Shown one piece after another: positions 505 through 47,732 of a stretch of 55,077 nucleotides of DNA. Origin of the DNA: a virus (lineage: Duplodnaviria > Caudoviricetes). The DNA is taken from IMG/VR virus record IMGVR_UViG_3300027676_000003, positions 1-55,077 of that record; one strand, 5' to 3'. Both the position numbers and the translations under genes were made by a program. The notes beneath the pieces were generated by a model. The model saw only the letters and a list, made by a program, of their open reading frames with translations. It had not been told where the DNA came from and ran no database searches. Position 1 is the first letter of the stretch. The number at the start of each line of letters is the position of its first letter.

Positions 505-789
505 TCATTCGCTGTCCATGCTTTCCACCCGCGCGCGCAGGGTCTGAAGATCCCTCCGCATCCGGTTGAATTCCTTAAGGAACGAGTTCAATCCGCTGCC
601 GCAGTTGTGCCCCATTGAGTGCGTCTCGCGCAGCTCCGCGTCGCTCACACGGTGAATATGCTCAAGCGATTCGACGCGAACCCCCAGCGCCTGGATTGCC
701 GCTTCCATGGTTTGCGTCTGCGTCAGATGCATGCCTTTCGTGCGCGCGGCGATCGTTCCCAGCTTCTTTTTCTTCATGACGATATTCAT
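505..789 (-). CDS. phage hypothetical coiled-coil protein
   Basis: ATGA overlap with the upstream ORF stop at 786-789; same strand as operon. Confidence 0.6.
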   Translation of the reverse strand: MNIVMKKKKLGTIAARTKGMHLTQTQTMEAAIQALGVRVESLEHIHRVSDAELRETHSMGHNCGSGLNSFLKEFNRMRRDLQTLRARVESMDSE

Positions 790-1016
790 GTGACTACCCA
801 TTCACGCTTCCCCGTGAACTGCGACTGTCCCAGCATCTTCCTGCGTTGGTTCGCGCGGCGCATAATGTCGTCCACATTCGCGTGAACGTACTGTCCGTTT
901 GTCCACAGAAAATAGGCGTGCCACTCCACACGCAGCACGTCACGCACGATGCGGAGGGCCAGATCGAAGTCGGCGGGGCGTTCGGGGGCTTCGCATGTCG
1001 CGGCCAGGTGCATCAT
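786..1016 (-). CDS. phage hypothetical protein
   Basis: Coupled by ATGA overlaps on both sides. Confidence 0.55.
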   Translation of the reverse strand: MMHLAATCEAPERPADFDLALRIVRDVLRVEWHAYFLWTNGQYVHANVDDIMRRANQRRKMLGQSQFTGKREWVVT

Positions 1017-2671
1017 GCGGCCCTCGCCTTCAGGTATTGCTGCGCGAGCAGCTTGATTCTCGATTCGTCCGAGTAGACCTGTTTCACGCCTGCGAGCGGG
1101 TCAGTAATACCCCGTGACTGACTGGCCTTGAGTCCGAGAACACCGATTATCAGAGGGTCGGAGCCGCCATTTGTCGGAAGATAGATCGCCGTGACTTCGC
1201 TCTCCTGTCCCGGCCGGTCAAGCCGTCCGATGAGTTGCTCATGGACCTTCGGGCTCCAGTCCAGCTCTCCAAGCACGGCGGTGTAGCACCGCTTCTGCAG
1301 GCCATCCAAACCGGCGCCAGACCGGAGGGAAATAATCAACAGGTTCGTCTCTCCTGCTGTGAATGCAGCCTTCGCGCGGTCCTTTGCCGCAGGACTTTCC
1401 GTGCCGGTATACATAACAGGGTTGAACTGCCCTAGCTCCTTCAGCCAGATGTCGTACACCTCGCGGTGCCAACCGGCGAGCAGGACCGGGATGCCGGATT
1501 CCAGCAGGATTCTGACGTAGGCCGCTACATGGCGGGCCTTCGCGACGCCGGTAATCTGCCGGGCGAGCATGTCCAATTCGCGTGCCGCCTGCCCGCGCTC
1601 AACAAAGCTTCCGGTCATTACCTTAAGAGCGAGTGTATTTGCAAGATCAGCGGCGCTATCGGCCACCTCCTGATCGAACGGAACCTCGTGAACGATGGTG
1701 TTTATCGGCCTCCCGGACCTCACCCTGCGCAGGACCAGATGTTGCTCACGCAGGTAGGTTCCAAGAGCGTCCGGATCTTTGACAACGTACTTTCCATTTC
1801 CGCTTCCGCTGCACCATTCCCGGATGAATTCATCACGGGCTCCAAGGGCACCGGGCTCGATCAGCTCGATGATGGGAAATATCTCGTCGCCGTAGTTGAA
1901 AATGGGCGTCGCGGAAAGCCCCATGCGCAACGTCCCCGCATGGTGCGCAAGTATTTGCGCCGCCGCCCCCTTGGCAGTGGACGGCCCGTGCCGGAGCTGT
2001 TGAATCTCATCGAAGATCACCGACCTGAATATGCCTTGGGCGAAGATATCCACCCATCCAGCGATATTGGAATAGCGGAAGATGTATACGTCTGCCGACG
2101 GCAGTGAATACGGTTTCATCCCTTTTATGACGTGGCATTTGAGTGTGGTGAACTTCGCCACGAAATCATCGCGCCATTGTGTCGCCAGATGCGGCTCGAC
2201 CACGATTGCCGCAGGAAGATAACGGCCTTCATTGATCGCCCCGAGCGCCGTCACGGTTTTCCCAAGACCAACATCATCCATCAGCAATAGCCGACCCCGC
2301 GCACGGGAAACCTCGATCGCCTGCAGTTGGTTGGGATAGGGCGCAAGGCCGTCCCGGAAGCCGCTGAACGCCGGCGGCTGGTAATCCGGCAACAGAATGC
2401 GCTCGACATGATCCCGCATCGCCTCGAAGCTGCGCTTGCCATTCGTGAGTCGTTTCATGTCTGGCACGGAAATCTCCACCGGATAGCGCTGGATGAACCA
2501 GTGAAGATCGGCGCAGATATCCGGCGTATCCGTAAGGGAATATGGCGCCGTGGATGTCTTCGGGATGCGCTGAAAATTGCTCTTTAGCCGGATCGCAACG
2601 TGGGGCGGAACGGCAGCCAGCTCCCATTTGCCTTTACTGTAGATCAATTGCCCGTAGGTGGTTTGCGTCAT
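1013..2671 (-). CDS. SNF2-family helicase
   Basis: DDVGLGKT (motif I), IFDEIQ (II), LSATP (III), GAGLDGLQ, EQLIGRLDRPGQ (VI); start moved to the ATGA overlap at 2668-2671. Confidence 0.9.
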   Translation of the reverse strand: MTQTTYGQLIYSKGKWELAAVPPHVAIRLKSNFQRIPKTSTAPYSLTDTPDICADLHWFIQRYPVEISVPDMKRLTNGKRSFEAMRDHVERILLPDYQPPAFSGFRDGLAPYPNQLQAIEVSRARGRLLLMDDVGLGKTVTALGAINEGRYLPAAIVVEPHLATQWRDDFVAKFTTLKCHVIKGMKPYSLPSADVYIFRYSNIAGWVDIFAQGIFRSVIFDEIQQLRHGPSTAKGAAAQILAHHAGTLRMGLSATPIFNYGDEIFPIIELIEPGALGARDEFIREWCSGSGNGKYVVKDPDALGTYLREQHLVLRRVRSGRPINTIVHEVPFDQEVADSAADLANTLALKVMTGSFVERGQAARELDMLARQITGVAKARHVAAYVRILLESGIPVLLAGWHREVYDIWLKELGQFNPVMYTGTESPAAKDRAKAAFTAGETNLLIISLRSGAGLDGLQKRCYTAVLGELDWSPKVHEQLIGRLDRPGQESEVTAIYLPTNGGSDPLIIGVLGLKASQSRGITDPLAGVKQVYSDESRIKLLAQQYLKARAA

Positions 2672-3371: not shown

Positions 3372-3502
3372 TAGGCACGGCTCCCCTGTTTTGTCTTTTG
3401 CACAGCCGTTTCTGGCGAGACTGTGTTGTCCGGTGCCCGTTGAGGGCTTTTTGTTAGGCACGGCCCGGCTTTTGCCGGTGGTTTTTGTTGGGCACGTTTA
3501 GG

Positions 3503-3703
3503 CTATTTTCTGCGAGGCTTCGGCTTTGCTTTCAGCGCCATCTGTGATGTTTTCGGCGTCAGATTGCCCTTCAGGAAGGTAAAGTAAGCGTTCGCCCGCT
3601 CTACTACCTGATCAGGCGTAAGGGTGATCGTGATGCTTGTCGAAGAAACCGCCAGGCGCAACGCCTCAAGCCGATTCTCATCGTCACTACAATGGATTGC
3701 CAC
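3503..3703 (-). CDS. small phage protein with basic tail
   Basis: Strong AAGGAGG RBS before GTG. Confidence 0.65.
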   Translation of the reverse strand: MAIHCSDDENRLEALRLAVSSTSITITLTPDQVVERANAYFTFLKGNLTPKTSQMALKAKPKPRRK

Positions 3704-3808
3704 GCTATGTCCTCCTTTGGTTGATTGTTCGTAGGCACGGCACTCTGCCCGATATTTACTTACGCGTCGGGTGCCGCGCGTTGCCCCTTAGCCTGGGCGG
3801 GGCTTTCA

Positions 3809-4480
3809 TTAGGCGGCTTTCTTCTCCGCTGAATCATCCTTGAAAAGCAGCGCCCGCACCGCACAATCCTTAGCCTCAAGCGCTCGCTCGATAGGCCATC
3901 CGTCCATGATTCTTCTCCTGAACTTCAAATAGGAAACACCGCTACGGCGGGACCACCCTGCCATCGTGTCGGTTATTCCGTTAAATTCTATGAATCTGAC
4001 AGTCGATCTATTTGCCGCCTGCGCACCAGGAAGCGCCCAGCAACAATTGGCGGGATTGTATCCCTCCTCGCCCTTTTTTCGCTCAACGGAGTGGCGCGGG
4101 CTTGGCCTCGGCCCCATATCTCGGTAGAATACTTCAAAAGAATCAATCCACTCCTGGCATATGGTAATGCCCCTTCCCCCGTACCGATGATAAAAGCGGC
4201 TCTTCGGGTTTAGGCACCTCGTCTTCATGTGGCACCAAGCTCGGTATTCAGCGGTTCTTCTCATTCCATGAGTCTTGAACACCCGCGATGGCATCTCCAC
4301 GCGCCAGCAACCGCAGGACTTCGTCAGACCGCGAAGTAACGCGCTGCTATAAACCACGCTTTGTGTGCCGCAATCACAGAGGCAATTGAACCGCGTCTTG
4401 CTTCCGCAGCCGTTCTGGGCGCGAGAGAGCACTACAAGCCGACTGAAGCGCTGCCCAATAAGGTCCGATGGGTTGGTCAT
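3809..4480 (-). CDS. phage HNH homing-endonuclease-like protein
   Basis: DLIGQRFSRLVVL, CLCDCG, KSCGC, YGGRGITIC, NCCWA motifs of this family. Confidence 0.85.
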   Translation of the reverse strand: MTNPSDLIGQRFSRLVVLSRAQNGCGSKTRFNCLCDCGTQSVVYSSALLRGLTKSCGCWRVEMPSRVFKTHGMRRTAEYRAWCHMKTRCLNPKSRFYHRYGGRGITICQEWIDSFEVFYRDMGPRPSPRHSVERKKGEEGYNPANCCWALPGAQAANRSTVRFIEFNGITDTMAGWSRRSGVSYLKFRRRIMDGWPIERALEAKDCAVRALLFKDDSAEKKAA

Positions 4481-4674
4481 TCTTTGAAAATCACGGCCCT
4501 TACGGCTGCGTCCTTTCCCTCCAAGAGTTTTCTCAGCGCCGTCGATTTCTCAGGATTGTTCGGCAGTGAAGCTTCAAGGGTCTGCGCCAACTCGCGGAAG
4601 GGGGCGCTTACCTCCTGAAGGTGAGGTGGCAGGTGACCATAGGCAAAGAACTGCATCAGGTAGGATTTCGACAT
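4477..4674 (-). CDS. small helical-hairpin phage protein (65 aa)
   Basis: GAGGAG RBS; FFAYGHLPPHLQ...EKSTALRKLLEGKDAAVRA. Confidence 0.8.
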   Translation of the reverse strand: MSKSYLMQFFAYGHLPPHLQEVSAPFRELAQTLEASLPNNPEKSTALRKLLEGKDAAVRAVIFKE

Positions 4675-4779: not shown

Positions 4780-4856
4780 TGGTAGCGGGGGCTGGATTCG
4801 CACCAGCGACCTCTTGGTTATGAGCCAAGCGAGCTACTAGGCTGCTCTACCCCGCG
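4780..4856 (-). tRNA. tRNA-Met(CAT), initiator-like variant, 77 nt with encoded CCA
   Basis: Cloverleaf: CGCGGGG/CCCCGCT acceptor, GAGC/GCTC D stem, CTTGG-CTCATAA-CCAAG, GCTGG-TGCGAAT-CCAGC, ACCA end. Confidence 0.92.
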
Positions 4857-4863
4857 ATAATCG

Positions 4864-5124
4864 TTATTCCTCCTCCTGTTTCACCGGCTCGATCTCGCAG
4901 AGCGAAACCGAAACACGGTATTGCTTTCCTGTTTCCTTGTTCCTGAAGGCTTTCTGCCAGCGCAAGCCGTCCTGATCCGCGAGCCCCGAATACTGCCGCA
5001 TCAGGGCAAGCATGAAGGCCTTGATGTCCAGGATCGGTTTTTCAACGACCTCGCGCTCCGGCTCAGCAGGGCGTCCATTCACCAGCACGTCGAGCATTTT
5101 GGCGAAGCTTTCAGTTCCGATCAT
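4864..5124 (-). CDS. phage hypothetical protein
   Basis: ATGA-coupled to upstream gene, GGAGG RBS. Confidence 0.65.
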
Positions 5125-5468
5125 GCTTCGTCCCCTCCAAAGTTGAAACTGCTTTGCATGCCAAGCGCGGCGCAGTACGTCGCCAGCATATGCTCGGTCT
5201 CATCGCGCTCGGCAGGGTCGAGCTTACGGAGGGCGATTATTTTGCGGAGGGTCTTTACGTCGAAGCCTCCAGATTTCGCCTCGGCATATACCTCAGTGAT
5301 ATCGCTGGCGAGTTCGGCCTTTTCCTCATGCAGGCGCTCGATGCGTTCCACGATGGCGCGGAGCTGATCGGCGGCGATACCGCCAGTCCTCACCGGCTGT
5401 TTGCCTTCAGGGGAAACACGGTGGGGGGTATGGGGAGAGGTTTGGGGCGATGGAGAGGGTGTGCTCAT
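5121..5468 (-). CDS. gapR: GapR-like DUF2312 nucleoid-associated protein
   Basis: [16 protein letters not shown]...[26 protein letters not shown]...YCAALGM signature. Confidence 0.9.
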
Positions 5469-6283
5469 GCGGCGGCCTTTCTTGCGTGCGAAAGCCAGCT
5501 CTCCCAACGCCTGCAGTCCATGACCACGAGTTTTTCTGCCGTATCCAAGAGCGGCAGGTAGTCCCGGCCGTCGCTGTCAAATCGGGCCATATAACTTTCG
5601 ATATAGTCATAAACCTTATTTGCAAGGCGCAACGATACGCCGGCGGCGCCCGGTGCTCGAATGGCATCTACAAAGCCGGCATCGCCTACCGCAGCTAGGC
5701 CGAACTCCTCCCGCTGGACGCGCGCGCATTCCAAAAACCGCTCAACAATGACTAGCAGCCCTTTATCATCGTTACGCATGCGGACCTTACAGATGAGATC
5801 GGATCGCCATTCCTCGATGAGAACTCGCTTCATTTGCTCGACCCTGGCGGCAACCGCACGCTGTTTCTCTTCCGCCTGAGCTGCAGCGGATGCCTCTTCA
5901 CGTTTCCGACGCTCCTTGCGCCCTCTGAGCGATTCGGTAACATTTGCCGGGACGATTCCGTTGTACGAGCGGTCCGCTTTGAAGGCATCTGAGATCAGCG
6001 TCGCCTCATGCATCTGCGCTTCTTCCTCGCTCCCGTACGTGGATATCACCGTGAATGTGAAGCTCGTTGCCCCATGGCGATTAAAGTCTTCCTGCATCTG
6101 CAGCCGAGGATGCTTGCCGGTGCGCAGCATCGAGCGGTGGGTGGAGAGGCGTGAGCGAACGTTGCGTGACCAGCCGGTATACGATTTTCCAGTCTCCGCA
6201 CAGATGATGGAATAGACGCCGATTGTAGAAGCAGGCGATGACGTCTCATTCTGGAAGCCTTCTAAATTACTGACAGCAATCAC
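5465..6283 (-). CDS. GIY-YIG nuclease domain fused through a coiled coil to a probable Cro-like HTH
   Basis: GVY...SYTG.S.NVRSRL..H; C-terminal [16 protein letters not shown]. Confidence 0.75.
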
Positions 6284-6370: not shown

Positions 6371-6592
6371 TTAAGGAGAATGCTCAATGCCTTCAGTCAC
6401 GACAAAATCGGGCGGTATCACTCTTTCAAGTTTGTTCAGGGTATCCAAAGTCGGATTCCACCTCTCGCAATCCATGCCACGTAGGATGCCCTCTGATACC
6501 TTCGCCTGCTTCGCCAAACGCGATTTCGGGATATTTCGGCTTATCCGGTATTGCCGGATTCGCTCAATGCTCACTGCGATGCTCTGGTTCAT
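6371..6592 (-). CDS. cro: Cro-like HTH regulator
   Basis: KSRLAKQAKVSEGIL...WNPTLDTLNKL; divergent from cI. Confidence 0.8.
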   Translation of the reverse strand: MNQSIAVSIERIRQYRISRNIPKSRLAKQAKVSEGILRGMDCERWNPTLDTLNKLERVIPPDFVVTEGIEHSP

Positions 6593-6602
6593 ATAGCGGC
6601 GC

Positions 6603-6672
6603 ATCATAATCGTAATGTATTGCGACTGTCAACTGGATTTTCGCAATATATTGCGCTCGTAATTTGCTACGA
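6603..6672. promoter_or_regulatory. OR-like region: three 16-bp operators and leftward promoter
   Basis: tcgtaatgtattgcga 6610-6625, tcgcaatatattgcgc 6641-6656, tcgtaatttgctacga 6657-6672; minus-strand TTGACA-18-TATGAT flanks the first. Confidence 0.85.
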
Positions 6673-6691
6673 AGACATTACCTTGCCGCTC

Positions 6692-7363
6692 ATGTCATTA
6701 ACTACCCTTGACCTTCCCTCAAACCCAGCCGAGCGCTGGCGCGTTTTGATTCGCGGCGTCATGCAACAGAAAAACATAAAACTGACCCCTTGGGCTCGAT
6801 CAGCTGGAATAAGCGAAGGAACCTTGAGAGCTTTTCTAAAAGGTGATACAAGAACTATGCAGATCGAGACAGTAGAGCGCCTATTAAGCGCCGCCGGTTC
6901 CTCACTTGAAGAGGCGCTGGGACACTCGCCAGGGAGGAGAAAAGTGCCGATTATTGGAACCGTCGGGGCTGGGGCTCAGGTCGTCCCTGTAGATGACCTC
7001 CCGCTTATTCCGAAACTCATAGCGGACACCGAGCGCGAGTACATCAACTGCGAGTGGGTTGATGCGCCGCCAGGTGTCGCTGATGAAGGAATCGTCGCGT
7101 TAAAGATAAAGGGCGATTCGATGATGCCGTATATGCGGGACGGCTCCATTGTCTATTACTCCGACCGGTTTTTAGGGGGCGCACCCGACCAGTGCCTTGA
7201 CCGGTTGTGCGTAGTCCAGATTGGAGACGGAGCCACCTTTGTCAAGATTGTTGAAAGGTCTCAACTGCACGGGAAGTTCGATCTGAAGAGCTACAATTTC
7301 CATACTATGCGCGATGTGACACTTGCATGGTGTGCTCCGGTAATCTTCATCAAGCCAGCTTGA
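6692..7363 (+). CDS. cI: CI-like repressor (HTH + S24 peptidase)
   Basis: N-terminal HTH, VGAG cleavage site, IKGDSM and FVK catalytic dyad motifs. Confidence 0.92.
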   Translation: MSLTTLDLPSNPAERWRVLIRGVMQQKNIKLTPWARSAGISEGTLRAFLKGDTRTMQIETVERLLSAAGSSLEEALGHSPGRRKVPIIGTVGAGAQVVPVDDLPLIPKLIADTEREYINCEWVDAPPGVADEGIVALKIKGDSMMPYMRDGSIVYYSDRFLGGAPDQCLDRLCVVQIGDGATFVKIVERSQLHGKFDLKSYNFHTMRDVTLAWCAPVIFIKPA

Positions 7364-7512: not shown

Positions 7513-7581
7513 GAGCATAAGCTTCAACCGCAGCCAGATGTTGCTTCGTAACCATCTGAGCGTGCTTAATATGTCTCCAAA

Positions 7582-7634
7582 TCGTAATGTATTGCGATTT
7601 TTCCCTTGCGAATCGTAATAGATTGCGATAGGGT
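7582..7634 (+). promoter_or_regulatory. OL-like region: two operators and rightward promoter
   Basis: tcgtaatgtattgcga 7582-7597 (identical to 6610), tcgtaatagattgcga 7613-7628 inside TTGCGA-17-TAGGGT. Confidence 0.85.
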
Positions 7635-7665
7635 GGCCTCGCTTGATTCAACCCGTGAGGTCCCA

Positions 7666-7899
7666 ATGTCTAACATCACCCCCGCCGAGTCTGCGAGTCG
7701 CGACGTTCTCGTGCGCGGCATCTATGAGGAGGCACGCAGGCGCCAGGCACCTCATATCGCCTACGCGCTTTTCCATGACCTGGGCGTGACGAGAGAGGAG
7801 GTGCATTCGCATCTCGGGTACGCCATCAGCGATTATTACCAGATTTACGTCACGGACAAGCGTCGTGCCGCCGCAACCCCCAAAGTCGAAGGAGCTTAA
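7666..7899 (+). CDS. first gene of rightward early operon, hypothetical
   Basis: GAGG RBS before ATG 7666. Confidence 0.65.
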   Translation: MSNITPAESASRDVLVRGIYEEARRRQAPHIAYALFHDLGVTREEVHSHLGYAISDYYQIYVTDKRRAAATPKVEGA

Positions 7900-7901
7900 T
7901 C

Positions 7902-9140
7902 ATGACCGCGCTTGCATACACCCAACAGACAGAGAAGCCGGCGCATCCGATTTCCGCGCTTGCGCTGGTCGAAACCGTGACCGCCGTTGACGTATTCACG
8001 GAGAACGGCCTTGACCCCATCCTCGACCGCATCGAGCTGGAAGTGCGCTCCATCGCGCTCGACATATCAAGCAAGAAGGGCCGCGAGCAGGTAGCCTCCC
8101 TCGCGCATAAGGTTGCGAAGTCCAAAACCACCCTGGACAAGCTCGGCAAGGATCTCGTTTCTGGCTGGAAGGAGAAGGCAAAAAAGGTTGACGCCGAACG
8201 CTCCCGTGCGTGGGATCGCCTCGAAGCCCTGCAGAAAGAAGTCCGGCAACCCCTCACCGAATTGGAGAACCGGGATAAGCAGCGCATTGCAGACCATGAA
8301 GCGCGGCTGGTGACTATAGCCCTCATTGGTAGTCACGCCGCCGCCAACTGGCAAACCATGCCGCTTGCCGACATGAACGCCCGGCTTAAGGCGCTTATGG
8401 ACGACAAAACCAATTGGGAAGAATTCGCAACCAGAGCGAAGGAGGCGCGTGACACCGCTGCTGATGCCGTTGCTGGCGCCATCATCAAACGCGAGAAACA
8501 CGACGCGGACCAAGCTGAGCTTGCCCGACTCCGCAAGGAAGAAGAGGAACGGAAGCAGCGCGAGCATGAAGAGCGTATCGCCGCGCAAGCTGCCGAGAAA
8601 GCCCGCTTAGCTGCCGAGGAAAAGGCGCGCAAGGCAGCCGAGGAGGAAGCCGCCCGTGTACGGGCCGAGCAGGAGAAGGCGGAAAATGAACGCAAGCGGA
8701 TACAGAGGGAGAAAGAAGCAGCCGAGGCCAAGGCAAAGCGCGATGCCGAAGAGGCCGCCGCTCGTCAGGCGAAAATCGAACGCGAAAGAGCTGAGGCGGA
8801 AGCGCGCGCGGCACAGGCCGAGAAGGATCGGATTGCCGCTGATAAGAAGGCCAAGGAAGACGCCCGCATTGCCGCGGAGAAAGCCGCAGCAGACCGGAAG
8901 GCAGCGGAAGAGGCCGCGGCGAAGCATGAGCGTGACCGGATTGAGGTTGAGAACAAGGCCGTGGCGGAAGCAACCGCAAAGCGCGAGGCGGACAAGAAAC
9001 ACCGCGCCAAGATTGATGGCGAAGTGATGTCGGCGCTGGTAGTTGCCATCAATACAGCCATATCGCCGACAGACCAAGCCAAGGCCATCATCAGGGCCAT
9101 CGCAGAAGGCCACATTCCCCACATCAAGATCCAGTATTAG
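7902..9140 (+). CDS. phage Ala/Glu/Lys-rich coiled-coil protein (often labelled TolA-like)
   Basis: KGREQVASLAHKVAKSKT..D..GK and IAEGHIPHIKIQY ends typical of this phage family. Confidence 0.8.
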   Translation: MTALAYTQQTEKPAHPISALALVETVTAVDVFTENGLDPILDRIELEVRSIALDISSKKGREQVASLAHKVAKSKTTLDKLGKDLVSGWKEKAKKVDAERSRAWDRLEALQKEVRQPLTELENRDKQRIADHEARLVTIALIGSHAAANWQTMPLADMNARLKALMDDKTNWEEFATRAKEARDTAADAVAGAIIKREKHDADQAELARLRKEEEERKQREHEERIAAQAAEKARLAAEEKARKAAEEEAARVRAEQEKAENERKRIQREKEAAEAKAKRDAEEAAARQAKIERERAEAEARAAQAEKDRIAADKKAKEDARIAAEKAAADRKAAEEAAAKHERDRIEVENKAVAEATAKREADKKHRAKIDGEVMSALVVAINTAISPTDQAKAIIRAIAEGHIPHIKIQY

Positions 9141-9582: not shown

Positions 9583-9829
9583 ACCCACCGAAACCCGCCT
9601 TTACCTGAGCGCCGCTGCCATCGTCCTTGCCGTGACCTGCATGACCTGCGCGTGGCAGGAAGGCCGCGTGTATGAGGCCGCGCATCGGCAGCGGGAGCAT
9701 GATGCCCTGCTTACGGCGTGCCGTGAAAACAACACGATTCTGCAAGAGAGATATGACTCGCTGGCGAGGGAGTCGGATTGGCTGACGACCGTGAGCGCAG
9801 AAGCCAAGTATCAGGGAGCAAACCCATGA
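9575..9829 (+). CDS. membrane-anchored small protein
   Basis: GGAGG RBS, N-terminal hydrophobic helix then coiled coil. Confidence 0.6.
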   Translation: MRKPTETRLYLSAAAIVLAVTCMTCAWQEGRVYEAAHRQREHDALLTACRENNTILQERYDSLARESDWLTTVSAEAKYQGANP

Positions 9830-10206
9830 ACGACGCCCTCCTCGCAGAAATCAGCTTCGCCGAACACCGCTGGCTTGATCATGCCCATGATTCCGGCGAG
9901 ATCCGCGACGCCCTCAAGACCGTCCTCACCGCCCTTGCAGCCTTCATTGTGGCTATCGGCACGTTCGTCTGGCTGCTCAACCTTTGTAGGGCGTCTGATT
10001 TCTCGCTGTGGTGGGCCGGGGTTCCCTACATCGCCCTCTATGCCGTTTCGCTGTGGCGGGAGTGCGTGCTGGCCATTCCCTTTCTGCTTATGCTTTCCGG
10101 ACCCGTTCATGCGGATGGCGCGGTAAGCGCGGTTGTAGGCTTCGTCGTGGAAGCCATGCAGGACCCGGACAACACCAGCTATGGGGATGACGATGACGGA
10201 GATTAA
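9826..10206 (+). CDS. membrane protein
   Basis: ATGA overlap, 2-3 hydrophobic segments. Confidence 0.55.
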   Translation: MNDALLAEISFAEHRWLDHAHDSGEIRDALKTVLTALAAFIVAIGTFVWLLNLCRASDFSLWWAGVPYIALYAVSLWRECVLAIPFLLMLSGPVHADGAVSAVVGFVVEAMQDPDNTSYGDDDDGD

Positions 10207-10582
10207 GCCAATGAGCGCCAAGCAATTCAACCGTGCCATGGGTGCAGCAATCAAGCGTCTTCGCAAGAAACGGGGGCTTTCGCTTCAGCAAGTGGGCGCG
10301 GCCCTCGGAGTCACCTACCAGCAGGCCGGGAAGTACACTGACGGCGCAAATGGTTTGTCGGCTTATTACCTTCCGAAGCTTGCGGCACTGTTCGGAATAT
10401 CCATTGAGCAGCTTTACGAGCAGGCCCGCATTAATGTCGCCGTTGAGCCAGCAGAGCCGACCCCCGCCGACAATGACGCCTTCCTCGCCGCCCGGTACGT
10501 GGCGCGCATCGAAGACGAGAAAGTGCGCGGGGCGTTCGTGGATTTCGCACGGAAGCTTGCATTTCAGGGAGGCGGGGCATGA
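10181..10582 (+). CDS. XRE-family HTH regulator
   Basis: GAAIKRLRKKRGLSLQQVGAALGVTYQQAGKY..G.N. Confidence 0.85.
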   Translation: MGMTMTEIKPMSAKQFNRAMGAAIKRLRKKRGLSLQQVGAALGVTYQQAGKYTDGANGLSAYYLPKLAALFGISIEQLYEQARINVAVEPAEPTPADNDAFLAARYVARIEDEKVRGAFVDFARKLAFQGGGA

Positions 10583-10821
10583 GCGACGTCACCATCATGC
10601 GCCCCACCCTCAACGCCGGCGACCGCGCCTTTGCGGCAATGCGGACGTTTTTAAATACCCTCGACGAGCTGAAGGCGCTGGCGGAATCCGACCCGACCGA
10701 GCTTCAGTTTTACCTGATGGAGATCGACAGGGCTGATACGGACATAAAGCTTCTGCTTACGCGGTTACGCACGAAGCCGACCACGTCGCAGCTTTGCGGC
10801 CAGTTTGGGAGGGGAACTTGA
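10579..10821 (+). CDS. phage hypothetical protein
   Basis: ATGA-coupled, GGAGG RBS. Confidence 0.6.
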   Translation: MSDVTIMRPTLNAGDRAFAAMRTFLNTLDELKALAESDPTELQFYLMEIDRADTDIKLLLTRLRTKPTTSQLCGQFGRGT

Positions 10822-11530: not shown

Positions 11531-12426
11531 CCTCCATTCCCGTCTCCACTCATAAACAGCCCACAGGCTTCGCACCCGGTATCTACCTTGGAATCAGCAA
11601 TGATGATTACCATGCCGATCCGGCTATCGGAAGCACAGGCTGCAAGCGCCTGATTCAATCCCCGCTTGATTACTGGTGGAATTCCTCGCTAAACCCCGAT
11701 CGCGAGGAGCAGGAAGTCACGGCCGCTATGCGTTTAGGGACCGCCTATCACTATAAGGTCCTCGAACCCCACAAGTTTACATACGAGGTAAAGAAAGGCG
11801 TCAAAACCAGCACTGTCGGTAACACTCTTGGCGAAGGCGACTACAAACGCCTCATAGCCATGTACGACCGGCTACAGAAGGTTCCCGAGCACGCCCAACT
11901 CTTCAAGAATGGCTTCGCGGAAGTGAGTATCTTCTGGCGCGACGAGCAAACCGGACTAATGTGCAAGTGCCGTTTCGACTATATGCGTCTGAAGTGGATT
12001 ACTGATCTTAAGACCTGCGATGACAGCAGCCGCAGGTCTATCTATTATGATTTCCCGAAGCTTGGATATGACATCTCCGCCGCGATGTACATGGAAGGCT
12101 CCGCCCAAGCCAAACGTATGATAAGGTCCGGCGAGTTCAAGCTATTAATCGATTCTCGGTTCGGTGAATTTCTCAATCAGTACAAGGACATCGAGGGAGA
12201 GCAGTTCGTCTTCTTCTTCCAATGCAAGAAAGCCCCCTATATCGCGCGCGCCCTTCCCATGGGGGCAGACATCGCGGTGGTCGGGCATGAAAAATTCCGT
12301 AACGCCCTGAACATCTATCTTGATAATCTCCAGCGCCACGGAACAAAGGAGGAATGGGATTTGGGGTTCCCGGCCTTTGAAGACCTCACCCTGAACGACG
12401 TAAGCAACTCAATCAACTACTTCTAA
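11527..12426 (+). CDS. recE: RecE/exonuclease VIII-like PD-(D/E)XK exonuclease
   Basis: ISNDDYHA, GTAYH, EVSIFWRD..TGLMCKCRFD, DLKT. Confidence 0.88.
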   Translation: MTSIPVSTHKQPTGFAPGIYLGISNDDYHADPAIGSTGCKRLIQSPLDYWWNSSLNPDREEQEVTAAMRLGTAYHYKVLEPHKFTYEVKKGVKTSTVGNTLGEGDYKRLIAMYDRLQKVPEHAQLFKNGFAEVSIFWRDEQTGLMCKCRFDYMRLKWITDLKTCDDSSRRSIYYDFPKLGYDISAAMYMEGSAQAKRMIRSGEFKLLIDSRFGEFLNQYKDIEGEQFVFFFQCKKAPYIARALPMGADIAVVGHEKFRNALNIYLDNLQRHGTKEEWDLGFPAFEDLTLNDVSNSINYF

Positions 12427-12442
12427 TGAAAAGGAAAATGCC

Positions 12443-13396
12443 ATGAACGACCAGACAAATGCAATCTCTACCGCCGTGGACGCGCCCGCCATGAGCAAAT
12501 CCAGCTTCAGCGGCGTGCAGTTTGCCACCGCCGAAAGCAACGGAGGACTTCGTCTCGCGCTCACCAGCTTCGCCGAAGCGGAGAAATTCGCGAACCTGAT
12601 GTCAATCTCCAACGCGGTGCCGAAGCATCTCCGTGGGAAACCAGCGGATTGCCTTGCGGTGTTGCTTCAATCTCTCAGGTGGGAGATGGACCCGTTCGCA
12701 GTTGCGCAGAAGACGTACTTCGTCAATGACGGGATGGCTTATGAAGCGCAGCTCGTCAACGCCATCATTATATCGCGGGCGCCGTTGGTGGCGCGTCCGG
12801 ATATCAAATGGACCGGGGAAGGCGATAATCTCTGCTGCATCGCCTCCGGCCTGTTTAAGGGTGAGAGCGAGGCGAAGGTCCGCACCGCGCATTTCAAGAC
12901 CATCACCACGAAGAATTCACCGCTTTGGAAGCAGGACCCGCAGCAGCAGCTTGCGTATTTCACGCTTCGGGCATGGGCTCGTCTTTACTGCCCGGACATT
13001 CTTCTTGGCGTTTACACCAAAGAGGAGATGGAAAACAGCATGATCGACGTGACCAACTCCGCCGCGGCAACCATAGAGAACGAGCTGAAGCAGGAGATCG
13101 CCAAATCAAACGGCCACAACCCCGAAACCGGGGAAGTGATCGATCAGGCGGCCACCGACTCCTCGCCCCCTTCCCTCAGGGACTGGCTGGATGACATCGC
13201 CGCCGCACCCACACCGGAAGGCGTTGACCAAAAATATGGGCATGCATCCGAGCAGTTTCTCGCAGACCACAACGCCATGGCGCAGCTCACGCTTGCAAGG
13301 ACGCAGCGGAAGCAGGTGCTTGCCAAGCCGGAGGTAGGTAGCAAGACGAGGAAACTCTTCGAGGGCGCCAAGCCGGCCGAGGGAGCAGCGGCATGA
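12443..13396 (+). CDS. recT: RecT-family ssDNA annealing protein
   Basis: VPKHLRGKPADCLAV..Q..RW.MDPFAVAQKTY, WARLYCPDILLGVY. Confidence 0.9.
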   Translation: MNDQTNAISTAVDAPAMSKSSFSGVQFATAESNGGLRLALTSFAEAEKFANLMSISNAVPKHLRGKPADCLAVLLQSLRWEMDPFAVAQKTYFVNDGMAYEAQLVNAIIISRAPLVARPDIKWTGEGDNLCCIASGLFKGESEAKVRTAHFKTITTKNSPLWKQDPQQQLAYFTLRAWARLYCPDILLGVYTKEEMENSMIDVTNSAAATIENELKQEIAKSNGHNPETGEVIDQAATDSSPPSLRDWLDDIAAAPTPEGVDQKYGHASEQFLADHNAMAQLTLARTQRKQVLAKPEVGSKTRKLFEGAKPAEGAAA

Positions 13397-14061
13397 CCGG
13401 GCTCATATTCGATACCGAGAGCACGGGGATTGATGATCCTCACGTGATCGAGGCAGCGTGGCTCAAAATCCCTTCGCCCACCGACCTCGCACCGACCGAG
13501 CGCTTCCTGCAGCGTTATAATCCGGGCAAACCCATCGCCCTGGGAGCGCTCGCGACGCATCACATCATGGACGAGGATCTGGTGGATTGCCCGCCTTCGT
13601 CGGACTTCCGCCTTCCGCCCGATACCCAATACCTAATCGGTTACAACATCGACTATGACTGGAAAGTCGTCGGCCAGCCGGATGTGCGGCGGATCTGCGT
13701 TCTGGCGCTCTCGCGGTCAATATTCCCAGGACTCGACAGCTATTCCCAATCGGCGGTCCTCTATCACCTTGAACGCCACCGCGCCCGGGAGCTGCTGAAA
13801 AACGCTCATTCCGCAATGCAGGACGTGGAGAACTGCTGGCTGATTCTTCAGCGCCTCCTCTTCCGCATGGGGGAGGATTCTGCAAGCTGGGAAGCAGTAT
13901 GGCGCCGGAGCGAACACGCCCGAATCCCAACAGTCATGACCTTCGGCAAGCACAAGGGTATCCCAATCAAGGACGTGCCTGCCGATTACAAGCGCTGGCT
14001 TCTCGGGCAGCCGGACGTTGACCCGTATCTCATGAAGGCGTTGCGGGGAGAGGCGGCATGA
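13393..14061 (+). CDS. exoX: DEDDh 3'-5' exonuclease, ExoX-like
   Basis: FDTESTG, YNIDYD, AHSAMQDV, MTFGKHKG...VPADY..WL. Confidence 0.88.
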   Translation: MTGLIFDTESTGIDDPHVIEAAWLKIPSPTDLAPTERFLQRYNPGKPIALGALATHHIMDEDLVDCPPSSDFRLPPDTQYLIGYNIDYDWKVVGQPDVRRICVLALSRSIFPGLDSYSQSAVLYHLERHRARELLKNAHSAMQDVENCWLILQRLLFRMGEDSASWEAVWRRSEHARIPTVMTFGKHKGIPIKDVPADYKRWLLGQPDVDPYLMKALRGEAA

Positions 14062-20100: not shown

Positions 20101-21639
20101 CTAAGCGATATTCACCAGAAACGGATCGCTCCACCCAACGCAGTATCCATCTTTCACTATGAAGCACTGAATACTGTGAGTCCCTTTGAATCGAGTAGGC
20201 TCCCTCCTTACCAGCCTTCCTTCTTCGATGGCCGTCTCCTCAAATCTCCCGCGCAGTTGGTTGGCATTCCTCGCCTCAACTCCAGTGTTTACGACCTGCC
20301 AATAAACCTTGAATGGCCGCAGCACGTCTGTCTCGGCGACAAACTTAAGCTTAACATTCTTAGGAACAGCAGGTCCGTTGCTTTCAAAAGGTGTCGGTCG
20401 GAATCCATCACGCTCTACTAACGCAGAAACAATATTCACAGCCCCGTAGGGCACCTTCGGCCAAATAATGGGTTTCCTGTGCGGCGCATCGAGAATTCTC
20501 TGGAGCGCGCCGGCGGATTTACGAACCAAGGACTTTTCGAGCAGCGCACGGTGTCGTCTTCGTGCAGCTTTTTCAAGAATGTCGCGCCCTATGCGTGGTG
20601 ACAACGCCTCGATAAAGCCCTCAATATCATTTTGCTCCGCTGCCGTATTAAAGTCAGCGCGAACGGTTTCGAGCCAGTCATAGAAGGCATCTTTTCGCTT
20701 TGGCTCATCTTTCCACGCATCGGCGAAGTTCTCTCGTGGATCAGAAGGATTCGGAATCCAATACTGCCCGTTCCGAACCTTGATGTAGTCTTCCATCCTC
20801 GTCAGGATGCTCAACAATGCACCCGTTATATTCGCTTCTTGTTGATAGGCTGCCGCCGCAAGAGTGCTTATAACTATCGATGTCGGACGCCCATCGGCGT
20901 CTTCGGAAAATCGTACGTTCCTGTGGTGCTTTAATATCTGGATGGCTGCCTGTAAAGGAGTCTTTACCCGAAATGCCGGGATTTCCGCTACGGATGCCCG
21001 CTTTTCCATGAGCATCATAGCTCGCCGTTTGGCCTCGAAAGTGGTCTTCATTCGCTCGTAGAACCACTCTGCATAGCCATTCGGATTGCTAACTGGCCAG
21101 TCATCGGTGAGCCGAACATAATTCGGGTGCTGTTTGTCCGTTATCGATACTGATTTCTCGACGAACGCTTGAGATAGCGAAGCTTCTACCCGAAGGCGCC
21201 GCTGCCGCTGCCCATCCGGTACGCAGGGCAGTAGATCCATATGGAATTGCGCCTCGTCAGCATAATTCAATGTCCAGCACCTGTCCCACCCCGCCGGAGT
21301 TTCCATGCTGTGGGCATCCGAATACAGCCCTAACTCATAACCCAGATCATCGAACAGTTTCTTTTGAGTGGTCAAAAGCTTGTTCTTGGAAAATTCGCAC
21401 ACAATATCCAGGTCATAGTCTTCTCTGCCGTCAAAGGGCCTGATGGCTGTACCCAGCCTGAACGACCCTTGTATGTACACATTGAAAGTGGTGCTAGCGA
21501 AGCGCGAGCCAGGTCGATCTAGCCAATCGCTGACGGACTTATAGCTGCGCTCCGCGGATTCGTATCGGCTTGGTGGAACATCGAGAGTGTCGGCAAGATC
21601 TGAGATTAGGTCTTCAGCCGTCTTTGTCAGGTTTGCCAT
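20101..21639 (-). CDS. CD-NTase (SMODS) with C-terminal AGS-C domain
   Basis: QGSFRLGTAIRP...DYDLD; NPSDPRENFADAW; VYWQVVNTG.EA...LRG.F, GTHSIQCFIVKDG. Confidence 0.9.
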   Translation of the reverse strand: MANLTKTAEDLISDLADTLDVPPSRYESAERSYKSVSDWLDRPGSRFASTTFNVYIQGSFRLGTAIRPFDGREDYDLDIVCEFSKNKLLTTQKKLFDDLGYELGLYSDAHSMETPAGWDRCWTLNYADEAQFHMDLLPCVPDGQRQRRLRVEASLSQAFVEKSVSITDKQHPNYVRLTDDWPVSNPNGYAEWFYERMKTTFEAKRRAMMLMEKRASVAEIPAFRVKTPLQAAIQILKHHRNVRFSEDADGRPTSIVISTLAAAAYQQEANITGALLSILTRMEDYIKVRNGQYWIPNPSDPRENFADAWKDEPKRKDAFYDWLETVRADFNTAAEQNDIEGFIEALSPRIGRDILEKAARRRHRALLEKSLVRKSAGALQRILDAPHRKPIIWPKVPYGAVNIVSALVERDGFRPTPFESNGPAVPKNVKLKFVAETDVLRPFKVYWQVVNTGVEARNANQLRGRFEETAIEEGRLVRREPTRFKGTHSIQCFIVKDGYCVGWSDPFLVNIA

Positions 21640-22192
21640 TGTTTGTTTTTCGGAGCGCTTCCGGAACGAACTTGTCGATCTCTTCCGCCGAAAAAGTATA
21701 CTCTTCACAGTCTTTCAGCGCTTTCTGCGCCGCGCTGTATGCTTTTCCGTTCGTTTGAGGCGCGCCCTTGTAAATCGCGGCTAGCCGAGTTTGAAGAGCA
21801 TCGCGACGTTTGATCGCGTCCTTATCGTCTAACGATTTCATCCGAAGCTCTGCCAATAATGACAAATAGGATTCGCGTATATCCCACAGGCTTGCAGCGG
21901 CATCACGATGCTTTTGCGCCGTGGCCCCTGGGTCGAAATTCTTCACGTAGCCGGCCAGCCAGGCGCTAAAAATTGAAATTATCGCCGTTACGATTCGCAT
22001 CCAAAACTTATCGGCCAGAAGCGTCGATAGGGCACCAGCCGCTGTGACTGACGATGCGAAAATCTGCCCGTACTTGTACCATTTGAGCGTTCCAGCGCAC
22101 TGATCCGCCATTTTCTCGTGCGTCTTATGGGTGTATACGACACGACCGAAACATTCTCGGACCTGCTCTTCAAGTGGTGTAAACGGAGCCAT
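21614..22192 (-). CDS. SLATT-family 2-TM CBASS effector
   Basis: RECFGRVVYTHKTHEK, two TM helices, HRDAA..LW.IRESY.SLL; extended -10 TGATATAAT upstream. Confidence 0.85.
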   Translation of the reverse strand: MAPFTPLEEQVRECFGRVVYTHKTHEKMADQCAGTLKWYKYGQIFASSVTAAGALSTLLADKFWMRIVTAIISIFSAWLAGYVKNFDPGATAQKHRDAAASLWDIRESYLSLLAELRMKSLDDKDAIKRRDALQTRLAAIYKGAPQTNGKAYSAAQKALKDCEEYTFSAEEIDKFVPEALRKTNNGKPDKDG

Positions 22193-27142: not shown

Positions 27143-27297
27143 GCAAGCCCTCGCTTCCCCGGCGCGATAGCAGGCCGTGCTCCCGCGTCAATGACGGTTC
27201 TCGACTTCCGCACCAGCGACCGGGAAGTCTGCGAGCCTATGACGCGCTGCACTCGGCCCGCTAAAAGTGCGCCGAAGCGAGGCCATCCCGGCCTTGC
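27143..27297. other. long imperfect inverted repeat (about 150-nt hairpin)
   Basis: Nested pairs cctcgctt/aagcgagg, cggcgc/gcgccg, tagc/gcta, ggccg/cggcc, cgcgtca/tgacgcg, acttcc/ggaagt. Confidence 0.8.
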
Positions 27298-27314
27298 ACG
27301 ACACAGAGGCCTGC

Positions 27315-32585: not shown

Positions 32586-32606
32586 CTTCACGAAAGGAAA
32601 CAGCAT

Positions 32607-33560
32607 ATGAACCCGAACGACAAACCGCCGCCGCGCGACTACCGCCAGGAAGTCACCAACGACATCATACGGATGCTTCAGGAGGGCACGGCCCCCTGGC
32701 AGAAGCCATGGGAAGCCGGCGAGCTTGGCCGGTCACCGTACAACCCCACCACCAACAAGCCGTATCGCGGCGGCAACGTGCTCGGCCTGATGATCGCAAG
32801 CATCCGGAAGGGCTATACGGACCCGCGCTGGTGTACCTATAAACAGGCGGCGGATCAGGGCTGGCAGGTACGAAAGGGCGAGAAATCCACCGCCATTGAA
32901 TTCTGGGAAATCGGGCACGGCAAAGACGATGAGGGAGAATCCGACGCGGACAAACCCCGCTCCCGGATGATTCACCGCGTCTATTCCGTCTTCAATGCCC
33001 AGCAGATAGACGGCATCCCGCCCCTGCATGTCGAGCCGCGCAGAGCCTTCGAACTCATCGAAGCCGGAGAGAACATGCTCCGGAACTCCGGGGCCGACAT
33101 CCGGCACGGCGGCGCGAAGGCATACTACAACCCCGGCACCGACCATATCCAGCTGCCCCCGAAAGACTGCTTCACGGACGAGCCCCGGTACTACAGCACC
33201 GCCCTCCACGAGCTGGCGCACTGGACGGGCGCGAAGCACCGGCTTAACCGGCTCACGGACAACCAGCCGTTCGGCAGCCCCGAGTATGCCAAGGAGGAAA
33301 TCCGGGCCGACCTGTCGAGCCTCTTCCTTGCCGCCGAGCTGGGTATCCCCTACGATCCGAAGGACCAGGCCGCCTACATCCAGAGCTGGATAAAGGTGCT
33401 GAAGAACGACAAGAATGAAGTGTTCAGGGCCGCTGCCGACGCATCAAAGGCGTGCGATTATCTGCATTCGCTGGAAAACGGGCAGGTGAAGACCGCGGAG
33501 CCTGGCCCGCACACCGAGCGCATCAGCGCGGAGGCACAGGAGCGGCGGAGATATCGGTGA
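32607..33560 (+). CDS. ardC: ArdC-family antirestriction ssDNA-binding/zincin protein
   Basis: PWQKPW, YRGGN, W.TYKQA...VRKGEK, VFNAQQ, HELAHWTG, YAKEE. Confidence 0.93.
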   Translation: MNPNDKPPPRDYRQEVTNDIIRMLQEGTAPWQKPWEAGELGRSPYNPTTNKPYRGGNVLGLMIASIRKGYTDPRWCTYKQAADQGWQVRKGEKSTAIEFWEIGHGKDDEGESDADKPRSRMIHRVYSVFNAQQIDGIPPLHVEPRRAFELIEAGENMLRNSGADIRHGGAKAYYNPGTDHIQLPPKDCFTDEPRYYSTALHELAHWTGAKHRLNRLTDNQPFGSPEYAKEEIRADLSSLFLAAELGIPYDPKDQAAYIQSWIKVLKNDKNEVFRAAADASKACDYLHSLENGQVKTAEPGPHTERISAEAQERRRYR

Positions 33561-37614: not shown

Positions 37615-37945
37615 TGGCCTTCCAATACGCACATTCTATCAACCAGCCGGCCACGAGGAACAGTGCTTATTTGCCCCCCCGTGTTTCCGGGTGTTGAACG
37701 CCGGTTCAAAGCGCTGATTTCTTCAAGCCCCTTCCTTTCACCTTCATCAGGCCAGCCACATCAATTCCGATCCTTTGCTCGAAACCTGCCACAAATCGGC
37801 CTTAGGGACGTCAAGCCGCGGCCCGCTCCATTCGCCGCGCCGGTAGTCGCACGTCTCCCGTGTAACGCCTTGACGTCAGTCCGATCCATGACCGGTTCTT
37901 CGCAAGGTCGGCAATGATGCCGGCCTGAAATCGAAAGGAAAGTTT

Positions 37946-47619: not shown

Positions 47620-47732
47620 CGACGCCGCCTGTAGGGGGAAGCCGATCCGATACAACCAAAACGTGAGCGCTGCAACATGAAAAAGCAACCCATGGAAGCG
47701 TATAGACTCGTCCCCGATCAGAGCTCGGAACA

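Follow-up and report, generated by a model that had tools for sequence, protein, structure and literature searches.

Can a tRNA that lacks both bases of the elbow contact between G18 and pseudouridine-55, which is taught as near-universal, serve as an initiator? The question is raised by the IMG/VR virus record IMGVR_UViG_3300027676_000003, the whole stretch of which, 55,077 nucleotides (nt), is called the window here. ARAGORN identified one tRNA gene in the entire window, a tRNA-Met with the anticodon CAT at positions 4780-4856. It is located on the minus strand, which an earlier interpretation made from the letters of the window, the sequence-only reading, did not state. The elbow of the tRNA carries A18 and G55. 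Judged by sequence comparison, the gene is one member of a class of A18/G55 tRNAs and not a one-off, and it is probably a working accessory initiator-type tRNA-Met on a mobile element. This reading is supported by the full-length tRNA match, the initiator marks, the recurrence of the A18/G55 class, and apparent native initiators of the same build in genomes of the candidate phyla radiation (CPR).

The tRNA is 77 nt long, including an encoded CCA, and positions 4783-4856 of the minus strand match the full Rfam model RF00005 (model positions 1-71) with 57.4 bits and an E-value of 2.8e-11, the gathering score being 29. The acceptor stem, CGCGGGG/CCCCGCU, starts with a mismatch of C1 (4856) and U72 (4784), continues with G2:C71 and C3:G70, and is followed by A73 and the CCA. 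RNAalifold left the columns of the 1:72 mismatch (1 and 74) unpaired when applied to the 23 sequences of alignment A1, which comprises the window tRNA and 22 A18/G55 relatives. The D stem GAGC/GCUC contains A11 (4846) paired with U24 (4832), the purine11:pyrimidine24 combination expected of an initiator; the same pair is A:U in 16 and G:C in seven of the 23 aligned sequences. The anticodon arm CUUGG-CUCAUAA-CCAAG spans 4813-4829, with the anticodon at 4822-4820, and has U29:A41 (4827/4815), G30:C40, and G31:C39 in place of three consecutive G-C pairs at 29:41, 30:40, and 31:39. The T loop UGCGAAU (U54 G55 C56 G57 A58 A59 U60) occupies 4796-4802, with G55 at 4801 and C56 at 4800. In the Rfam alignment, A18 (4838) and G19 (4837) of the D loop AGCCUAGUA lie under the consensus G18 G19. 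The features listed by the sequence-only reading (C:U at 1:72, A11:U24, U29-A41, A18, and G55 in TGCGAAT) were all confirmed by the sequence and the Rfam alignment. Its description of the tRNA as initiator-like also stands, as the unpaired 1:72, G2:C71, C3:G70, A11:U24, G30:C40, and G31:C39 are all present. Methionyl-tRNA synthetase (MetRS) recognizes its substrates by the CAU anticodon and A73, both of which the window tRNA has. The determinants of formylation are a 1:72 position without a Watson-Crick pair, G2:C71, and C3:G70, and the window tRNA sequence contains them all (C1xU72, G2:C71, and C3:G70).

In the tRNA elbow, base 18 slots between bases 57 and 58 and bonds base 55; pseudouridine-55 has been called "universally conserved", and the exposed face of the G19:C56 pair forms a stacking platform for RNase P, the L1 stalk, and T-boxes (excerpts of PMC4810234). 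The window tRNA departs from the canonical G18 and U55 or pseudouridine-55 by its A18 and G55, and its 19:56 pair is the standard G:C. T-loops outside tRNAs have the consensus YGNRA with G in the second place, and the base slotted into them is nearly always an adenosine that bonds this G (excerpts of bioRxiv 10.1101/2022.12.26.521914). The T-loop UGCGA of the window fits YGNRA and, together with A18, corresponds to the solution used outside tRNAs, with G19:C56 untouched. Because a G at T-loop position 2 and an intercalating adenosine are usual outside tRNA, it is plausible, by analogy, that A18/G55 is a structural swap for the elbow contact. On chemical grounds, G55 and A18 should prevent the formation of pseudouridine-55 and Gm18 on the window tRNA.

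The surveys of other tRNAs showed that the two bases are coupled. IMG/VR contigs were scanned for CAU anticodon loops that precede a G55 T arm; the scan gave at least 119 loci, and nearly all of their tRNAs, among the matches listed, contained AG in place of GG. The corresponding scan with position 55 left free gave 118 loci, of which 111 were new and all U55, and seven belonged to the G55 set; the frequency of G55 in such phage CAU tRNAs is about 6%, and A55 or C55 did not occur in the 118 loci. The viral G55 CAU tRNAs among the matches listed (n = 127) comprised 121 with A18, three ambiguous ones, and three that could not be assigned by rule, and none had a clear G18-G19. The ambiguous tRNAs have AGUAGGAA loops and are A18 by homology with sister sequences, and those without a rule assignment have short D loops, each containing AG. 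Among 247 viral U55 CAU tRNAs, 240 had G18 by rule and seven were odd or unassigned, including one real A18/U55 candidate (L215). A complete scan with the exact anticodon arm of the window found 87 viral loci, with GG in 66 of 66 U55 tRNAs and A18 in 21 of 21 G55 tRNAs. The reverse scan of metagenomes, in which the A18 D arm was fixed and the T loop free, yielded 21 loci: 19 with G55, one with U55, and one with A55; four T loops (UGCGAUU, UGCAAAU, UGCAAUU, and UGCGAAU) were found in these loci. The mutual information between positions 18 and 55 was 0.82 bits, which is in the range of helix pairs; that of the known tertiary pair 15:48 was 0.56.

The coupling was also evident on a tree of 395 unique CAU tRNAs, calculated with positions 18 and 55 masked and eight ambiguous rows dropped. 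Fourteen phylogenetically independent pairs differed at position 55 on supported branches; position 18 changed with it in a mean of 13.9 of them and in the opposite sense in none (sign test, p ~1.2e-4). The full tree, which is weakly supported, contains 58 changes, and the switch runs both ways. According to these sequences and trees, the 18/55 switch is an event that occurred many times and always as a pair. The co-variation is thus found in phage tRNAs by the 87-locus scan, the larger viral sets, and the tree test, and the substitutions are not unique to the window copy. The sequence-only reading had attributed the paired changes to selection and not decay. This view is supported by the strict and recurrent A18/G55 covariation in viral, metagenomic, and cellular sequences, and by compensatory changes in the stems. 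Since A18/G55 recurs as a coupled pair, the gene appears to have been selected and not to be decaying.

The compensatory changes were identified in alignment A1, in which AG at positions 18-19 is invariant and seven of 19 predicted pairs have double compensatory changes, so that the cloverleaf is kept. L265 is the closest relative and is distinguished from the window tRNA by a compensated swap of the 51:63 pair from U:A to A:U, and the nearest relatives are all of initiator-like build. The class defined by G55, A18, and a kept 19:56 pair includes the window tRNA. Among the matches listed, it has 121 viral, 67 cellular-genome, and 13 metagenome members with a CAU anticodon, and 309 members with other anticodons (294 cellular-genome, 13 viral, and two metagenome).

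The two initiator-like phage tRNAs L362 (12668-12743(-), A18/G55) and L355 (G18/U55) are near-twins with six differences in 76 nt. The differences include positions 18 and 55 and a compensated 7:66 stem pair; L326 and L375 were also compared with L362. Such near-twins provide natural "before and after" forms of the elbow switch.

Within phages, the swap appears, from the tRNAs collected, to be mainly a feature of the initiator-like tRNA. G55 was present in 13 of 863 non-CAU tRNAs of the 119 G55-selected loci listed, nine of the 13 being in a single locus (L096), and in one of 626 non-CAU tRNAs of the 111 unbiased viral loci. Among the matches listed for CAU tRNAs with the same T-arm pattern, 1:72 was unpaired in 99 of 115 with G55, compared with 56 of 106 with U55; the remaining 16 of the 115 had a paired 1:72. 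Locus L096 is an IMG/VR contig of 14,977 nt, in which ten of eleven tRNAs have G55 (Thr, Glu, four Leu, Arg, Gln, Val, and the CAU tRNA).

In cellular genomes, the same G55 pattern was found at 90 loci in 185,579 species genomes; this pattern is restricted to CAU tRNAs whose variable loop has 5 nt, and all 80 of the 80 matches listed are from metagenome-assembled genomes (MAGs), which may be incomplete. In each of the four CPR genomes checked, the sole initiator-like CAU tRNA found is A18/G55 (L452 in G002, L444 in G003, L442 in G004, and L453 in G005), and the other CAU tRNAs and neighbouring tRNAs of these genomes have the canonical elbow. The A18/G55 copy of Nomurabacteria has the C1xU72 mismatch and the CUUGG/CCAAG stem in common with the window tRNA. 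The complete Kazan-group genome G006 (L441/L446) has a canonical initiator and an elongator-type CAU tRNA with the swap. Opitutaceae arrays, Saccharibacteria genomes, and DPANN archaea have further A18/G55 CAU tRNAs of the elongator type.

Complete sets of swapped tRNAs were found in Verrucomicrobia, in which many 8-kb loci contain 14-22 tRNAs each, all of them G55. The G55-only arrays of Opitutaceae and related bacteria encode CCA and cover most amino acids; further all-G55 array loci are L231, L243, L245, L246, L252-L254, L257, L283, L286, L290, L297, L300, L305, L310, L311, and L316. The Opitutaceae chromosome G001, with 73 tRNA matches, has two arrays of 23 and 15 tRNAs (L417, G001:C1:1664000-1677000, and L418, G001:C1:5166500-5180500). 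All 38 of the 38 array tRNAs are G55 and nearly all are A18, and all 21 of the 21 scattered high-scoring tRNAs, from the 18 scattered loci examined, are canonical. The L418 array contains a Ro60/TROVE-like gene (7514-8953(+)) and is followed by a gene for an RtcB RNA ligase (11931-13532(+)), which suggests that the G55 arrays are linked to RNA repair or quality control. The flanks of L417 encode a sigma-70 factor (3393-4115(-)), a Mu-like transposase (779-2248(-)), and a ClpB-like ATPase (9773-10816(-)). Long tRNA arrays have been described as horizontally spread, supernumerary, and located near homing endonucleases, and as sometimes induced by translational stress and co-regulated with rtcB; tertiary contacts are not mentioned in the main text of that study (PMC8421152). 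In the Anabaena L-array (Nostoc sp. PCC 7120 plasmid delta), the swap is present in one of 24 tRNAs and the other 23 of 24 are canonical. The swapped one is a tRNA-Glu(CUC) (L440 c[2507,2584]) with the D loop AAAUAAGAUAA and the T loop UGCAACU.

In the G55 verrucomicrobial arrays, the 19:56 pair covaries as well, occurring as G:C, C:G, and U:A with A18/G55 constant; a formed elbow predicts exactly such pairing. The C19:G56 and U19:A56 types are exemplified by tRNA-Arg TCG of L417 (c[5565,5639]; D loop AAUUACCA, T loop UGGGAGU) and by tRNA-Arg TCG of L245, L246, L253, and L311, which have the T loops UGAGAGU or UGAGACU as 19:56 variants. Viral loci also show the classic change from G19:C56 to A19:U56 (D loop ..UGA.., T loop UUU...). 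A second unusual T loop, AGCGUUA, combines A54 with G55 and is found in array tRNAs for Ile(GAU/UAU), Lys(CUU), and Trp, and in a few phage tRNAs (L417 c[5132,5205], c[5806,5898], and c[6641,6715]; L418 [5751,5825] and [9086,9159]; L041, L119, and L052/L394).

Based on these features, a path for the window tRNA can be proposed. The tRNA would be co-transcribed in a leftward early operon and released by RNase P and 3' processing. It would be charged by MetRS through the CAU anticodon and A73, and formylated by the formyltransferase through the unpaired 1:72, G2:C71, C3:G70, and A11:U24. Binding to the P-site would be mediated by G30:C40 and G31:C39. The elbow would be rebuilt, not damaged: A18, slotted into the T loop and bonded to G55, would replace the contact of G18 with pseudouridine-55, and the outer G19:C56 platform would be kept for the elbow readers, among them RNase P and the L1 stalk.

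Several observations weigh against a working initiator of a recurrent class. The minimum-free-energy fold of the window tRNA calculated as a single sequence is not a cloverleaf; such non-cloverleaf folds are common among tRNA sequences. No identical copy of the tRNA was found in viral or metagenome contigs, the scans of which may omit the window's own record, and the exact D arm of the window together with its anticodon loop had 0 matches in viral contigs. The samples are limited by the patterns used, which were a CAU anticodon loop with a GGUNCGAAUCC T arm, or one anticodon arm. The calls of position 18 depend on the alignment of D loops of variable length and were made by rule and inspection. 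Some tRNAs fall outside the coupled states: L308, from a Saccharibacteria MAG, has a clear G18-G19 with G55, L215 and L404 are A18/U55 candidates, and L410 is A18/A55. Because these tRNAs exist, intermediates are not absolutely forbidden; they may be intermediates of the switch or tolerated exceptions. Only two of the three G-C pairs of the anticodon stem are present, and U29:A41 is pyrimidine:purine, the reverse of the natural variants. The A29:U41 (au/GC/GC) form, in which purine:pyrimidine is kept, is natural in all alpha-proteobacteria and some mycoplasmas, and the middle one of the three pairs is essential in the E. coli initiator (excerpts of PMC5389676). For these two reasons, the lost first G-C pair does not disqualify the window tRNA. 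The "rewired" anticodon stem of the sequence-only reading is correct in that the first G-C pair is lost, but the stem is not exotic, considering the natural au/GC/GC forms and the occurrence of the same arm in 87 viral contigs.

The last counter-argument comes from initiation factor 3 (IF3). Residues R25, Q33, and R66 of E. coli IF3 contact G19, pseudouridine-55, C56, and A57 of the initiator, and breaking the contact lowers fidelity (excerpts of PMC9723500). Bases 55 and 57 of the window tRNA, the ones touched by the N-terminal domain of IF3, would not be the same as in the E. coli initiator. The residues corresponding to 25/33/66 are R / N or Q / R or K in the four CPR genomes with G55 initiators, and F, A, and K in the Kazan genome with the canonical initiator (one genome). 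No consistent change of the contact residues was found in the four CPR genomes, and R25 is kept in 4/4.

Why the elbow is swapped can be answered only tentatively. The bias towards initiator-like tRNAs in phage sets and CPR genomes, together with the report of the IF3 contact, suggests an initiator-specific reason, and an effect on the elbow contact with the ribosome and IF3 may tentatively be proposed. The IF3 reading remains an idea, because the IF3 sequences of the CPR bacteria show no matching change. Since the swap is on the initiator-like tRNA in the phage sets and four CPR genomes, it is possible that the window encodes a specialised initiator, as the sequence-only reading had imagined. 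The verrucomicrobial arrays and the phage locus L096 suggest a more general reason, which could be independence from modification by the host or evasion of an enzyme directed at the elbow; folding without need of the host's elbow modifications is a similarly tentative proposal. We speculate, with considerable doubt, that A18/G55 is a purposeful alternative elbow that sets tRNAs apart from the housekeeping pool. Initiators would thereby acquire retuned IF3 and P-site contacts or freedom from modification, and spare sets would form a parallel surviving pool. If this were true, the contact to the N-terminal domain of IF3 and to P-site readers would be retuned in the initiators of phages, mobile elements, and some CPR bacteria, or these initiators would be freed from the elbow-modifying enzymes of the host. 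The spare sets, represented by the verrucomicrobial arrays near Ro60-like and RtcB genes and by one phage array, would be a pool that outlasts any agent by which the canonical elbow is disabled or marked.

Escape from a nuclease or another defence is an unlikely reason for the swap. According to this explanation, a host or competitor enzyme directed at the canonical elbow or T loop, by recognition or cleavage, would not see the accessory tRNAs, and the element would keep a usable initiator during an attack on the tRNA of the cell. Whole accessory sets are indeed swapped and housekeeping tRNAs are not, as in G001 (38/38 array tRNAs G55, 21/21 scattered tRNAs canonical) and in phage locus L096 (10/11), and one of the G001 arrays holds the Ro60/TROVE-like gene and adjoins that of the RtcB RNA ligase. 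The window element carries genes of conflict systems (a cyclase with a two-transmembrane (2TM) effector of a cyclic-oligonucleotide-based anti-phage signalling system (CBASS), a TIR protein, and DarB-like and ArdC-like proteins). However, most phage sets swap only the initiator-like tRNA, and the swap is therefore a poor fit to a general tRNA nuclease; moreover, such a tRNA is apparently the genome's own initiator in four CPR genomes. Cleavage between positions 54 and 55 is reported for a contact-dependent-inhibition toxin, but this analysis identified no nuclease directed at the T loop. The sequence-only reading had invoked VapC-type toxins, which cut in the anticodon arm. Neither this link nor nuclease resistance found support here, as the anticodon loop of the window tRNA is the canonical CUCAUAA, without a change of the kind expected for escape from an anticodon nuclease, and no gene for a tRNA-targeting toxin turned up among the ~60 open reading frames (ORFs) of the window that were scanned. 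It is known that tRNAs of phages can escape defences directed at tRNA (excerpts of PMC10264068, PMC11555353, and PMC12409363), but the documented escapes are changes of the anticodon loop, and the T-loop, D-loop, and elbow are not mentioned in PMC10264068.

Compensated near-neutral drift is likewise doubtful. A18/G55 would then be a second stable elbow, a second fitness peak reached without special function, which is commoner in fast-evolving mobile tRNAs and in initiators, the latter because they escape the constraints of EF-Tu and the A-site. The switch is recurrent and runs in both directions (at least 14 supported independent pairs and the 58 changes of the weakly supported full tree), intermediates are rare, the change is structurally conservative, and both states exist within very similar tRNA families, all of which agrees with drift. 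Nevertheless, drift does not easily explain the 38/38 array tRNAs with G55 in G001 versus 0/21 scattered ones, nor the G55 frequency of ~6% in phage CAU tRNAs versus 1/626 in the non-CAU tRNAs of comparable loci, and it leaves the rarity in cells (90 loci in 185,579 species genomes with the pattern used) unexplained.

It is very unlikely that the gene encodes an elongator tRNA-Met, or a tRNA-Ile2 with the CAU anticodon converted to lysidine. The CAU anticodon alone does not discriminate between these tRNAs and initiators, A18/G55 CAU tRNAs of the elongator type do exist (in the Opitutaceae, Saccharibacteria, Kazan, and DPANN sequences described above), and 1:72 is paired in 16 of the 115 G55 matches listed. 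However, an elongator or tRNA-Ile2 would have a paired 1:72 and elongator-type stems. In the window tRNA, C1xU72 is a mismatch followed by G2:C71 and C3:G70, positions 11 and 24 form a purine:pyrimidine pair, and of the three G-C pairs only the first is lost, the essential middle one being kept. Its nearest relatives are all initiator-like. The scarcely credible alternatives of a decaying pseudogene or an integration-site remnant, to which the single copy without an identical match in the contigs scanned, the two departures from "universal" bases, and the integrase on the element might point, were rejected because all stems are intact, the full-length Rfam match is well above the cut-off, both departures form a coupled pair common to hundreds of tRNAs, and the gene occupies a tight operon slot ~50 kb from the integrase gene and not at an end of the element.

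The probable accessory initiator is encoded within a leftward operon that is divergent from a gene for a CI-like repressor with helix-turn-helix and S24 peptidase domains (6551-7363(+); PF13443, PF00717, phrog_4). The order of the operon is a GIY-YIG-like gene, a GapR-like gene, an 86-residue ORF, the tRNA, the phrog_1761 gene, an HNH endonuclease gene, a RusA-like gene, and a gene for an SNF2-type helicase. A sigma-70-like promoter match (11/12) is located at the head of the operon (6603-6632(-)); in this consensus scan it was the sole strong match, and none was found directly at the tRNA. Upstream of the tRNA are the GIY-YIG homing-endonuclease-like gene (5465-6283(-); PF01541, phrog_7168, and phrog_314), the gene for the GapR-like DNA-binding protein (5121-5507(-); PF10073, E-value 2.8e-31), and the 86-residue ORF without a family match (4864-5124(-)), the stop codon of which precedes the tRNA 5' end by 7 nt. 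Downstream is the phrog_1761 gene (4477-4674(-)), for which the PHROG match covers residues 38-105 of a 108-residue ORF; the tRNA is probably not overlapped by it, because the likely start codon is the ATG at 4674, which has a GAGGAG site upstream. It is followed by the HNH endonuclease gene (3809-4480(-); phrog_374, E-value 5.9e-61). The HNH-like and GIY-YIG-like genes bracket the tRNA, as in the tRNA clusters of phage T4 and in long tRNA arrays. This arrangement suggests that the tRNA travels as a homing cassette and, by analogy, fits what is known of mobile tRNA genes, which are associated with homing endonucleases.

The 55,077-nt record cuts an ORF at each of its ends and has no terminal repeat. 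The element encodes RecE/RecT-like proteins, several DNA methyltransferases, and a serine recombinase, and a tyrosine integrase gene is cut by the contig end. Its defence and counter-defence cargo includes the CBASS cyclase with 2TM effector, the TIR protein, and anti-restriction genes for a giant DarB-like protein and an ArdC-like protein, and is accompanied by a MOBF (TrwC) relaxase (regions 20101-22192(-), 36709-37632(-), 27267-33560(+), and 44851-47745(-)). No virion genes were found among the ~60 ORFs scanned. Therefore, the safest label for the record, which the tools class as a virus, is a mobile element with phage-like and conjugative-element-like modules. One public DNA sequencing run contains the stretch, a soil metagenome from which it may originate, and no RNA run is listed with it. 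A search of INPHARED phages returned only matches of tRNA length, from Caulobacter and Rhodobacter phages, and there is thus no close known phage. The best plasmid relatives of the relaxase are from Runella and Planctomycetes (34-40%); the GapR-like domain points instead to alpha-proteobacterial phages. Plasmid matches to the window tRNA are canonical Streptomyces-type initiators. In eight viral loci (L357, L395, L377, L333, L343, L384, L337, and L345), GapR-like genes are located within a few kb of canonical-elbow initiator-like tRNAs with the same CUUGG/CCAAG stem. This hints at a phage lineage common to the window and these loci, within which the window copy may have switched its elbow type.

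No description of A18/G55 covariation in tRNAs was found in the open literature searched, and neither G55 nor A18 occurs in the review of T-loop modifications PMC7912444. The strict and recurrent covariation recreates, inside tRNAs, a solution of non-tRNA T-loops, and it is concentrated in initiator-like tRNAs of phages, apparent native initiators of some CPR bacteria, and complete accessory tRNA arrays. It raises the questions of whether the elbow contact can be exchanged without functional loss, whether the fidelity of initiation depends on the bases touched by IF3, and whether the design of accessory tRNAs frees them from host enzymes or hides them from these. The class also bears on annotation: standard tRNA models give A18/G55 genes lower scores, and such genes might be taken for pseudogenes.

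The window tRNA resembles E. coli-type tRNA-fMet in the CUCAUAA loop, A73, the unpaired 1:72, G2:C71, C3:G70, A11:U24, G30:C40, G31:C39, and G19:C56. It differs in having U29:A41 for G29:C41, A18 and G55 for G18 and pseudouridine-55, and C1xU72 at 1:72, where the E. coli initiator has a C:A mismatch. It also has G57, whereas that of E. coli has A57 (excerpts of PMC9723500). With the au/GC/GC initiators of alpha-proteobacteria and some mycoplasmas it shares a first pair that is not G-C and G-C pairs in the middle and third positions; unlike the U29:A41 of the window, theirs is purine29:pyrimidine41, and an elbow change is not described for them in the excerpts of PMC5389676. The T-loops of the flavin mononucleotide (FMN) and cobalamin riboswitches follow the same UGCGA logic, with an A of the partner loop in the slot (excerpts of bioRxiv 10.1101/2022.12.26.521914). 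In contrast to the T-loop/receptor motif of riboswitches, rRNA, and RNase P, the motif of the window is inside a tRNA and is known here from sequence. Defence-evading phage tRNAs are also accessory tRNAs of mobile elements that differ from those of the host at conserved positions, but their changes are in the anticodon loop at the cleavage site and that of the window is in the elbow (excerpts of PMC10264068). L-arrays and homing-endonuclease tRNA cassettes likewise consist of supernumerary tRNAs on mobile DNA beside homing endonucleases (excerpts of PMC8421152). The window differs from L-arrays in having one tRNA in 55 kb, and the swap is confined to a single tRNA in the Anabaena L-array; the verrucomicrobial arrays have the A18/G55 elbow in common with the window tRNA.

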